Positions 57,979 through 59,026 are shown, numbered from the stretch's first letter. The stretch: 64,000 nucleotides of DNA from Candidatus Helarchaeota archaeon (GCA_019058315.1 JAHPZH010000005.1:128001-192000); one strand, 5' to 3'. The notes: a model not told the origin generated them from the letters alone. A program made the numbers and translations.

Positions 57979-58049
57979 ACTGGAATAAGGAGCGCATCCC
58001 TATCAATAATACATTAAATTTTTTTGTATTATTTCATTTTTCTTCCAGT
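57979..58049 (-). promoter_or_regulatory. Eukaryote-like SECIS element in the 3' UTR of the selenoprotein gene
   Basis: Minus-strand RNA: ACUGGAA GAAAA AUGA AAUAAUACA AAAAAAUUUAA UGUAUUAUU GA UAGGGA UGCGC UCCUUA UUCCAGU. It shows helix I (ACUGGAA/UUCCAGU), an AUGA...GA core, a perfect 9-bp helix II and an A-rich apical loop, starting 1 nt after the TAG. Confidence 0.85.
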
Positions 58050-58050
58050 T

Positions 58051-58374
58051 CTATTTTAAATCACCGATTATTAGATAACCTCTTCCTTCATCTATTTTTC
58101 CATCAATTATTATTTTTTCTGCCATAAATAGAAAATATGCTGCATCTTCATCTACAAAAACTTGCAATCCATTTATAGTTCCTAATAATTCTAACTCATT
58201 CAATCTTGATGTATCCTCAAAATGGATCGATGTCCAGTGTGCTCTTTGAGTAGTACATCAAGAAAACCGCTCAAATTCTGTTATCACCAATATTTCATTA
58301 TTTTCTTTATTGTTTTTTAGTCGTTCAGTGATCACACGTTTGGCAAGGTCTGTCAACTCAATCTTTATAGTCAT
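58051..58374 (-). CDS. Selenoprotein, HesB/IscA-like fold, U-C motif (107 aa, Sec39)
   Basis: MTIKIELTDLAKRVITERLKNNKENNEILVITEFERFS-U(TGA 58260-58258)-CTTQRAHWTSIHFEDTSRLNELELLGTINGLQVFVDEDAAYFLFMAEKIIIDGKIDEGRGYLIIGDLK. HesB-like pattern (IELTDxA...INGLQVFVD...IID...G.L) on both sides of the UGA; SECIS downstream. Confidence 0.85.
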
Positions 58375-58456
58375 TCTAATTCAACTTTATATTCTTATCT
58401 TGTTAATACTCATTACTATTTAATAAAAACGATTTTGTAAAAATAAAAATTAGATT

Positions 58457-58744
58457 TTAATCTTTTATACCAGGTCCTTTAATAACACCTTCATGGTCAT
58501 CATAAGGGATTTGACGAATTAACGCCCAATTTTTTACTGCTCTGGAGTAAATTCGAACATCCTTAATATCGTCATATGCTCCGAAATAAACTACAACACT
58601 ACAATCTTTATCTTTGGTCTTGAATTTTCCAGCAATTTTTTTGATGAAAATTGGTTCATCTTCTATATCCATTTGAATTTTAGAATTCTTAGATAATAAT
58701 TCAATTGCAAGATCAATACCTGTCTTAATATCATCTTCTTTCAT
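58457..58744 (-). CDS. Small hypothetical protein, tandem paralog of 58760-59026
   Basis: MKEDDIKTGID...FIKKIAGKF vs MKKQDIEKGIE...FMRKLDGKF. Confidence 0.7.
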   Translation of the reverse strand: MKEDDIKTGIDLAIELLSKNSKIQMDIEDEPIFIKKIAGKFKTKDKDCSVVVYFGAYDDIKDVRIYSRAVKNWALIRQIPYDDHEGVIKGPGIKD

Positions 58745-58759
58745 ACAACATTCGCTCCA

Positions 58760-59026
58760 TTAACTAACTTCTCCCAAATCTTCTACTTTGATATTTCTTT
58801 TTTGCGCTCCTTTTATAACCATTTTTTCTAATAAAGCTATTTTCTCGGGATCTTCCGAAATTAAAACATACCCCAGAATACTGCGCACTTCATTATTGGA
58901 ATCCAAGAATTTTCCGTCCAATTTTCTCATAAAGCATATATCTTCCTTATAATCTATTTTTGTTTTGGAATTTTTTAGCGTTTCTACGAATATTTCTATT
59001 CCTTTTTCGATATCTTGTTTTTTCAT
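58760..59026 (-). CDS. Small hypothetical protein, tandem paralog of 58457-58744
   Basis: See paralog; 15-nt spacing. Confidence 0.7.
   Translation of the reverse strand: MKKQDIEKGIEIFVETLKNSKTKIDYKEDICFMRKLDGKFLDSNNEVRSILGYVLISEDPEKIALLEKMVIKGAQKRNIKVEDLGEVS

Follow-up and report, generated by a model that had tools for sequence, protein, structure and literature searches.

In the A-type carriers IscA and SufA, cluster ligation involves one Cys residue in the N-terminal half of the protein and a C-terminal Cys-x-Cys motif, with the clusters being bridged between subunits. A vicinal Cys-Sec redox centre is known from mammalian thioredoxin reductase, where it forms part of the C-terminal GCUG motif. 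Next to these, two selenoprotein families are of relevance here. The CC/Se family NF041239 (Moor_selen_rel; PF28096 CC_Se_fam) is a bacterial family which was predicted in Moorella thermoacetica and for which CxxU is the motif given in review. The HesB-like selenoproteins of family TIGR01911 (HesB_rel_seleno) were 75Se-labelled in Methanococcus maripaludis and occur also in anaerobic bacteria, their function being unknown (PMC11097638, PMC13188914); their Sec motif is UxGP (PMC13188914). For Asgard archaea seven selenoprotein families have been published, and among archaea HesB-like selenoproteins were reported from Methanococcales only (PMC11227280, PMC13188914). The lokiSECIS passages of Mariotti 2016 (PMC4989117) describe an element that resides near the stop codon and combines an AUGA, a 9-bp stem, an 11-nt loop, five A and a GA, and according to these passages standard SECIS models miss it.

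The gene described here is located within a 64,000-nt stretch of DNA from a Candidatus Helarchaeota archaeon (GCA_019058315.1 JAHPZH010000005.1:128001-192000), which is referred to as the window and the positions of which are counted from its first letter. A first-pass annotation of the window had stated that HesB-like selenoproteins occur in some methanogens and bacteria, with Sec at this loop, and had proposed a further one at this locus, putatively with a redox or metal/Se-handling role. The gene at 58374..58051 is very probably a real selenoprotein gene, with Sec predicted to be inserted at codon 39.

Reading frame, strand and conservation of the UGA codon

Translation reveals a reading frame of 107 sense codons on the minus strand, extending from an ATG at 58374..58372 to a TAG at 58053..58051, and for the plus strand over 58051-58374 stops only were found. 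The coordinates of the first-pass annotation hence stand, and the strand, which had been left unstated therein, is the minus strand. The frame possesses a lone in-frame TGA at codon 39, directly followed by a TGT (Table 1), just as had been claimed. Around Sec39 the residues read ...E-F-E-R-F-S-U-C-T-T-Q-R..., whereby Cys40 is the sole Cys of the protein, and the lack of a C-terminal CxC noted before was confirmed. Likewise borne out was the earlier statement that the frame is missing from the ORF calls, as the standard ORF list contains at this locus just a 50-aa piece starting with TTG.

Table 1. Coordinates of the predicted selenoprotein gene, its 3' element and related features. Positions are those of the window unless the window's genome (G000) or a contig is named.
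Feature	Coordinates	Strand	Evidence or remark
Predicted selenoprotein CDS	58051..58374	-	translation, collinear orthologues, dN/dS, AF2 model, IscA-fold matches
Predicted Sec codon UGA, codon 39	58258..58260	-	TGA kept in L019, L020, L036/P0026; Cys in related proteins
Cys40 codon UGU, vicinal to Sec	58255..58257	-	kept in 4/4 U-forms of clade
SECIS, lokiSECIS / eSECIS-like type I with extra 3' side hairpin	57979..58049	-	conservation, MFE fold, covariation
SECIS lower helix, 7 bp	58049..58043 with 57985..57979	-	
SECIS AUGA	58037..58034	-	in internal loop
SECIS helix 2, perfect 9 bp	58033..58025 with 58013..58005	-	
SECIS apical loop, 11 nt, opening with six A	58024..58014	-	
SECIS GA (GA-U)	58004..58003	-	
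SECIS side hairpin, GC-rich	58001..57987	-	between GA and closure of lower helix
5' intergenic region (AT-rich, TATA-like), presumably holding promoter and leader of the gene	58375..58456	-	conservation with L019; promoter role inferred
50-aa TTG-started fragment, given by ORF caller in place of the gene	58051..58203	-	standard ORF list
Paralog, I-G-U-G-G..., ends YGSC	G000 C3:786506-786865 = L042:1501-1860	+	own SECIS
Paralog, A-I-U-G-T-G-G..., ends GGGC	G000 C5:240985-241398 = L044:1336-1749	+	own SECIS
Side-hairpin SECIS, own genome	G000 C3:41555	-	
Side-hairpin SECIS, own genome	G000 C5:241411	+	
Side-hairpin SECIS, own genome	G000 C11:675802	+	
Side-hairpin SECIS, own genome	G000 C3:786881	+	
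Sec machinery cluster	G000 C5:124363-128115		SelB/EFSec-like, SepSecS, tRNA-SeC(tca), then weak SelD/AIR-synthase-like ORF

Two orthologues of other metagenomic origin, L019 and L020 (87% and 70% identity), retain the TGA-TGT pair; both are collinear with the window gene and show no indels in the core. The pair is also kept in a distant relative (L036/P0026), where the surrounding residues read N-U-C-A-S-R-G-E-W. Among the differences listed between the window and contigs of three or four other runs, from which 22 differences of low support were left undisplayed, none falls onto the TGA-TGT. Nei-Gojobori analysis of the window gene, L019 and L020 yielded dN/dS values of 0.12-0.20 past the TGA and of 0.01-0.19 before it, with no indels, from which it follows that the region 3' of the UGA is under protein-level selection. 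As the TGA-TGT pair, the frame and the 3' element are all kept in independent metagenome contigs, the pattern is regarded as exceeding chance.

The two closest database proteins, P0002 and P0003 (87% and 70% identity), carry at face value a W at the Sec site. The underlying contigs (ENA ERZ23499107 and Logan SRR30758826) yield these proteins only if TGA is translated as W, and also in P0026, P0023 and P0020 the W results from TGA=W translation. The W at the Sec site of the database homologues hence is a TGA=W miscall. In a maximum likelihood tree, the window gene, L019, L020 and P0026 group together with seven Cys-type proteins (support 99/98), some of which come from the same family and order as the window and are named Candidatus Helarchaeota in NCBI. 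Within this 11-member clade the Sec39 column is occupied by U in four and by C in seven members, and the Cys40 column by C in all four U-forms and by C, K or R in the Cys-forms. The first-pass annotation had reasoned that Trp, Arg or another residue at the UGA position of homologues would speak for a simple nonsense mutation; near homologues were found to keep the TGA and the nearest Cys-types to possess Cys.

Conservation between the window and L019 extends to around 80 nt ahead of the ATG despite a different upstream gene: the upstream 95-aa gene is common to the window and L020 and not to L019, and a secreted 310-aa gene located downstream is common to the window and L019. Taking the evidence of this and the following sections together, it is highly likely that the locus constitutes a separately transcribed minus-strand gene, encoding a 107-residue selenoprotein of the IscA/HesB fold that possesses a Sec-Cys loop and depends on lokiSECIS-directed UGA decoding.

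The 3' element

A SECIS had been noted right after the TAG, and a structured element of the lokiSECIS type was indeed identified there, beginning 2 nt past the TAG and approximately 220 nt downstream of the UGA (Table 1). In the window, L019 and L020 the 3' UTR is nearly invariant, its conservation exceeding that of the CDS, and the similarity stops just past 57979. The element folds as three helices with an MFE of -17.3 kcal/mol and a z of -3.87, and one pair of helix 2 is A-U, G-C and G-U across the window, L019 and L020, hence compensatory. Among 12 SECIS of family members, eight of the nine helix 2 pairs were found to be changed on both sides. The covariation of this helix was 0.77 as compared to 0.23 in shuffles (0 of 500), with slid partners reaching at most 0.21, whereby only the variety of pair types carries evidential weight since the 12 elements were picked by a pattern that demands pairing.

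The likeness to the lokiSECIS or eSECIS-like type I element, as characterized in the pertinent passages of the publications (PMC4989117, PMC11227280), comprises the AUGA, the 9-bp stem, the 11-nt loop starting with five or more A, the GA and the proximity to the stop codon, and each of these five is shared by the window, L019 and L020. A difference concerns the last loop position, described as an 'ultraconserved' G in the passages of Mariotti 2016, where the window and L019 have an A and L020 has a U; this G is present in the SECIS of the tandem-type genes (see below) and of the other family members of the window's genome. The lokiSECIS passages of the same two publications (PMC4989117, PMC11227280) furthermore do not describe a side hairpin between the GA and the lower helix as it is found in the window element. 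Such a side hairpin, often with a UGCG- or UUGCG-type loop, is located behind the HdrA, the VhuD and all IscA-fold selenoprotein genes of the genome and was observed in other Lokiarchaeia, too.

A strict SECIS pattern had nine matches in the genome (5.8 Mb), as compared to a single one in the reversed-sequence control. Besides the window gene, these matches belong to a VhuD/MvhD gene (C-G-U-H...), an HdrA-like gene, two IscA-fold genes with an in-frame TGA and one possible small membrane selenoprotein; the three remaining matches fall within ordinary genes and are likely to be false positives. The match of the possible membrane selenoprotein (G000 C10, minus strand, 42157) follows a short ORF of hydrophobic character, the in-frame TGA of which lies in the context V-U-P-L-C (UxxC) and which may represent an unlisted small membrane selenoprotein. 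In Rfam searches at gathering thresholds and at E<=10, no SECIS family matched the 3' element of the window gene and solely chance snoRNA-like matches were obtained.

Selenocysteine machinery and genetic code

The genome of the window encodes a tRNA-SeC(tca) (63.5 bits) directly downstream of genes for SepSecS (482 bits) and a SelB-like factor (287 bits), and a PSTK-like gene was identified with E=1e-49 and 170 bits, a score under the equivalog cut-off of 290. The SelD of the genome possesses a single in-frame TGA of its own. The Sec machinery, the presence of which had been named earlier as a point to check, is hence encoded in the same genome. The tRNA-SeC was the only tRNA found to possess a tca anticodon. 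Genome-wide reassignment of TGA was considered and rejected, as TGA serves as ordinary stop elsewhere, terminating 374 of 2436 long frames (15%).

Based on these components, UGA codon 39 would be decoded as Sec by a machinery of the archaeal/eukaryote type, comprising tRNA-Sec, PSTK, SepSecS, the SelB/EFSec-like factor and the Sec-containing SelD. The eukaryote-like SECIS of the Lokiarchaeota type, 2 nt past the UAG, is proposed to steer this decoding.

Protein fold and family assignment

Profile searches with the window protein yielded scores under the respective cut-offs, namely 13.5 bits for Pfam PF01521 Fe-S_biosyn (gathering score 26.3) and 14.9 bits, E=0.03, for TIGR01911 (cut-off 66.35), for which the best score among the relatives was 22.1 bits (P0022). 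The Pfam match covers residues 4-82 and thus supports the earlier observation of HesB-like sequence on both sides of the TGA. On the level of the family, Fe-S_biosyn was matched by six of seven members at E<1, and the Cys-form of genome G005 (L016) passes with 27.3 bits.

An AF2 model computed from the family alignment (pLDDT 80.4, pTM 0.71) was used for Foldseek, with the first 12 matches being of the IscA fold at a probability of at least 0.9. VIA-align identified E. coli IscA (1r94) with a Z of 9.4 (rmsd 3.0, 94 of 97 residues), followed by SufA and DsrR with 8.6 each, and the next unrelated chain had a Z of 2.4. PDB sequence searches with the family profile and with the homologue that passes the Pfam cut-off did not reach IscA, which was reached by fold comparison alone. 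The earlier HesB/IscA-like assignment is consequently supported by Foldseek, VIA-align and the family-level Pfam matches as far as the fold is concerned. By score (14.9 versus 66.35 bits) and by motif (UCTT rather than UxGP), the protein is not a member of TIGR01911.

Within the model, Sec39-Cys40 is part of a loop between the beta strands 27-37 and 44-54. By near-collinear superposition of model residues 3..107 onto chain residues 1..94, this modelled loop coincides with the region in which IscA has its first ligand Cys. In the family alignment (MAFFT), the Sec of other subfamilies is positioned one column later than the Sec39 of the window protein, i.e., on Cys40. As a consequence of this one-residue offset between subfamilies, the loop is shared but a one-to-one match of either Sec39 or Cys40 to the ligand Cys of IscA is ambiguous.

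Distribution and annotation in public databases

A profile search of the window's class identified the family in 56 of 151 species genomes and 17 of 29 genera (E<=1e-5). Among the 69 matches obtained, 61 contain exactly one TGA, four a TGA and a TAA, three no stop and one a TAA only, TGA thus being present in 65 of 69. The TGA position was checked in 18 genes of the family, i.e., the window gene, L019, L020, L036, 12 tandem-type genes and two paralogs of the window's own genome. This census required a profile, as a single-sequence search of 60 relatives returned just three distant matches. All matches belong to the window's class, the family being found in none of 151 genomes from 23 other families (phylum-wide sample, at least 80% complete).

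When 1.84 billion representatives were searched exhaustively with the profile, only 27 proteins were returned, and a word-based search returned 13. The named database members are without exception Asgard "hypothetical proteins", many of them being pieces of 71-83 aa that start just past the Sec site. In public records, members of the family are found solely as C-terminal fragments or with the Sec site given as W, and the suspected mis-annotation in databases was thereby confirmed. In metagenome catalogues the Sec sites of P0002, P0003, P0016, P0020, P0023, P0025, P0026, P0028 and P0036 are shown as Trp, whereby TGA=W translation was verified for P0002, P0003, P0020, P0023 and P0026 and is presumed for P0016, P0025, P0028 and P0036. 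The TGA=W table is applied by gene callers to short AT-rich Asgard contigs and constitutes a systematic trap for tests which ask for Cys or Trp in homologues. Two long proteins, P0018 (866 aa) and P0037 (1734 aa), each align seven to eight times with the family profile, in separate matches that involve its N-terminal or middle part, and may be repeat proteins of the family module or low-complexity artefacts.

The Asgard lists of Mariotti 2016, Sun 2021, Huang 2024 (including 87 supplementary files) and the 2026 review contain no HesB/IscA-type selenoprotein. Within the literature searched, the family is hence unreported among Asgard selenoproteins, and the earlier proposal of a possible addition to the described Asgard selenoproteome agrees with its absence from the lists of Mariotti 2016, Huang 2024 and the 2026 review.

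Paralogs and gene neighbourhood

The genome harbours two more IscA-fold genes with one in-frame TGA each, giving three such genes in total, and both paralogs are followed by a SECIS with AUGA, 9-bp helix, 11-nt loop, GA and side hairpin. Canonical Fe-S_biosyn proteins scoring above the Pfam cut-off were not found in this genome. Full genes are furthermore present on five contigs of other Lokiarchaeia, four of which hold a tandem pair (L018, L021, L024, L025) and one the first gene only (L022). These tandem-type genes possess U-x4-C motifs (U-T-T-x-F/Y-C, U-S-G-Y-F-C), are flanked by a gene for a P-type cation ATPase on one side and an aconitase gene on the other, and each is equipped with its own SECIS of the same architecture. 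The aconitase is encoded on the opposite strand and is absent at the window locus.

In the tandem pair of L018 (907-1287 and 1501-1857), the stop codons of both genes are the UGA within the SECIS AUGA. The second gene of this pair lacks an in-frame ATG, GTG or TTG start, and a conserved Ile codon, 8 nt past a GGTG, may be its start. Orthologues of an alpha/beta-hydrolase (lysophospholipase-like) adjoin IscA-fold genes at L016:553-1410 (minus strand) and L042:460-1302 (plus strand), with the IscA-fold partner being a Cys-Cys form in G005 and a Sec form on C3 of the window's genome, and with order and orientation of the pair being different.

Directly upstream of the window gene, two small paralogous proteins of 95 and 88 aa are encoded (58457-58744 and 58760-59026, both minus strand), which belong to no Pfam family. 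In general, the neighbours of the window gene have no Pfam family or no tie to Fe-S or selenium metabolism, and no isc or suf operon was found among them.

Alternative explanations for the in-frame UGA

The in-frame UGA could be the outcome of gene decay, i.e., a TGG or TGT of a once-intact HesB-like gene would have mutated to TGA and the 3' part would be decaying. The failure of ORF finders to recognize the gene and the W of P0002 and P0003, if taken at face value, are what such a pseudogene would lead one to expect. This W was, however, identified as TGA=W artefact (P0002, P0003, P0026, P0023, P0020), and with dN/dS at 0.12-0.20 past the TGA, with neither frameshifts nor further stops, with a conserved SECIS 3' of the gene and with TGA occurring in 65 of 69 family matches of the class, decay is hardly tenable as an explanation; that the orthologue contigs are assembly copies is excluded by their nucleotide divergence of 13% and about 30%. 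It may also be assumed that near-cognate or suppressor decoding places a standard amino acid (Trp, Cys or Arg) at the UGA, or that UGA is read as sense across the lineage. Sec itself is a prediction from sequence, and public gene callers did use the TGA=W table on these AT-rich contigs. Against this, TGA terminates 15% of the long frames of the genome, the sole tca tRNA found is tRNA-SeC, encoded beside SepSecS and the SelB-like gene, the lokiSECIS behind the gene is shared with the VhuD and HdrA genes, and homologues possess Cys rather than Trp at the site, rendering a standard-residue reading very unlikely.

That the Cys-type homologues are single continuous proteins, collinear through the site, and that the Pfam match as well as the AF2 fold extend across the TGA stands against two independent abutting ORFs of 38 aa and approximately 50 aa. 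The latter proposal would draw on the 50-aa TTG-started ORF being present and on the U-rich tracts 3' of the structured element, the hairpins of which would then merely be a terminator or stability element. As this element possesses the lokiSECIS-specific AUGA/GA core in a fixed 9+11+9 geometry, the likelihood of two separate ORFs is considered next to nil. A selenoprotein gene with Sec at codon 39 therefore is the preferred reading.

Putative function

Within the predicted selenoprotein, Sec39 is expected to be the reactive residue. As a C-terminal Cys-x-Cys is missing and only Cys40 is available beside Sec39, a canonical three-Cys Fe-S site is impossible. The subfamilies share one invariant chalcogen residue, usually accompanied by one more Cys at +1, at +5 or at the C-terminus, and the Cys-form P0024 has no second Cys. 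A chalcogen combined with a Cys of shifting position is reminiscent of a nucleophile whose resolving thiol can change its place, which favours a redox or chalcogen-transfer centre over a bridged cluster or metal site. Provided the gene is real, the Sec-Cys pair was hence judged, with slightly better than even confidence, to be a redox or chalcogen-transfer centre that would cycle via a vicinal selenenylsulfide. What weakens the vicinal-pair mechanism is that the second Cys is unconserved in the closest Cys-forms, where C, K or R is found and where P0024 possesses a single Cys.

A metallochaperone, again assuming a real selenoprotein, would be a homodimer that coordinates, by two Sec and two Cys, either a bridged [2Fe-2S] cluster or a soft metal. 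The IscA/SufA fold is consistent with this, divergent forms might fill the role given that the genome contains no canonical Fe-S_biosyn protein above the cut-off, and the tandem relatives of other Lokiarchaeia adjoin the gene of aconitase, an Fe-S enzyme. However, the C-terminal CxC ligands are missing, the second Cys is unconserved in the nearest Cys-forms, the aconitase gene is on the opposite strand and not found at the window locus, and the structural match is equally good with DsrR, which represents an IscA fold without cluster ligands. The metallochaperone is therefore regarded as a possible but rather unlikely function.

As regards the whole family, Lokiarchaeia may possess lineage-specific multi-paralog IscA-fold selenoproteins that handle Fe-S or Fe-Se clusters or relay Se or S to them, an idea that is to be considered doubtful. 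If true, a selenolate would take the place of the cluster-ligand thiolate of A-type carriers and the proteins would represent the first factors of Fe-S assembly or repair that depend on Sec, with the vicinal U-C form of the window being a self-resolving variant of such a selenolate centre.

Irrespective of function, the findings point to an additional selenoprotein family in more than one third of the Lokiarchaeia species genomes searched, nearly always in its Sec form, which public annotation hides as fragments of 70-80 aa or behind a false Trp. They furthermore expose TGA=W calls on AT-rich metagenome contigs as a systematic error. The Sec/Cys pairs of the family may offer a handle on the role of the long-enigmatic HesB-like selenoproteins.

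Comparison with known systems

The window protein resembles the TIGR01911 proteins in being a small single-domain protein of the IscA/HesB fold with its predicted Sec in the first-Cys loop of A-type carriers and without a canonical CxC, and the weak HMM match, which aligns residues 4-39 to profile positions 3-37, stops exactly at the Sec. It differs from them in its motif, which is U-C-T-T and not UxGP, in lacking the Gly/Ser/Cys-rich C-terminal tail, in its eukaryote-like lokiSECIS as compared to the methanococcal SECIS of the GAA_A type, and in a distribution that was confined to Lokiarchaeia in the genomes searched.

With NF041239 the likeness consists in both being small families with a CC or Se-containing motif. 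Here, residues 5-81 of P0026 align to positions 1-71 of 91 (E=4e-4), and one tandem-type relative (gene B of G028) was matched with E=0.006, whereas neither the window protein nor the read-through search of its genome gave a match. Both relatives remain under the 40-bit cut-off (20.3 bits for P0026 and 16.7 bits for G028 gene B), and the family, being bacterial and possessing a bacterial SECIS, has CxxU instead of UC.

The fold of IscA, SufA and ErpA (PF01521) and of DsrR is shared over nearly the whole chain, with the reactive chalcogen being placed in the equivalent hairpin loop. As opposed to the A-type carriers, the window protein is predicted to possess Sec39 in place of Cys, has no C-terminal Cys and is not found in the context of an isc or suf operon. 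Thioredoxin reductase is comparable, by analogy only, in that adjacent Sec and Cys residues can form an eight-membered selenenylsulfide ring. The order is U-C within an internal loop of the IscA fold, in contrast to C-U on the flexible C-terminal tail of a flavoenzyme, and no partner reductase was identified. Judged by profile scores and motif, the window protein is outside each of the families TIGR01911, NF041239 and PF01521 by score, and its motif differs, but it is akin to the proteins of all three.
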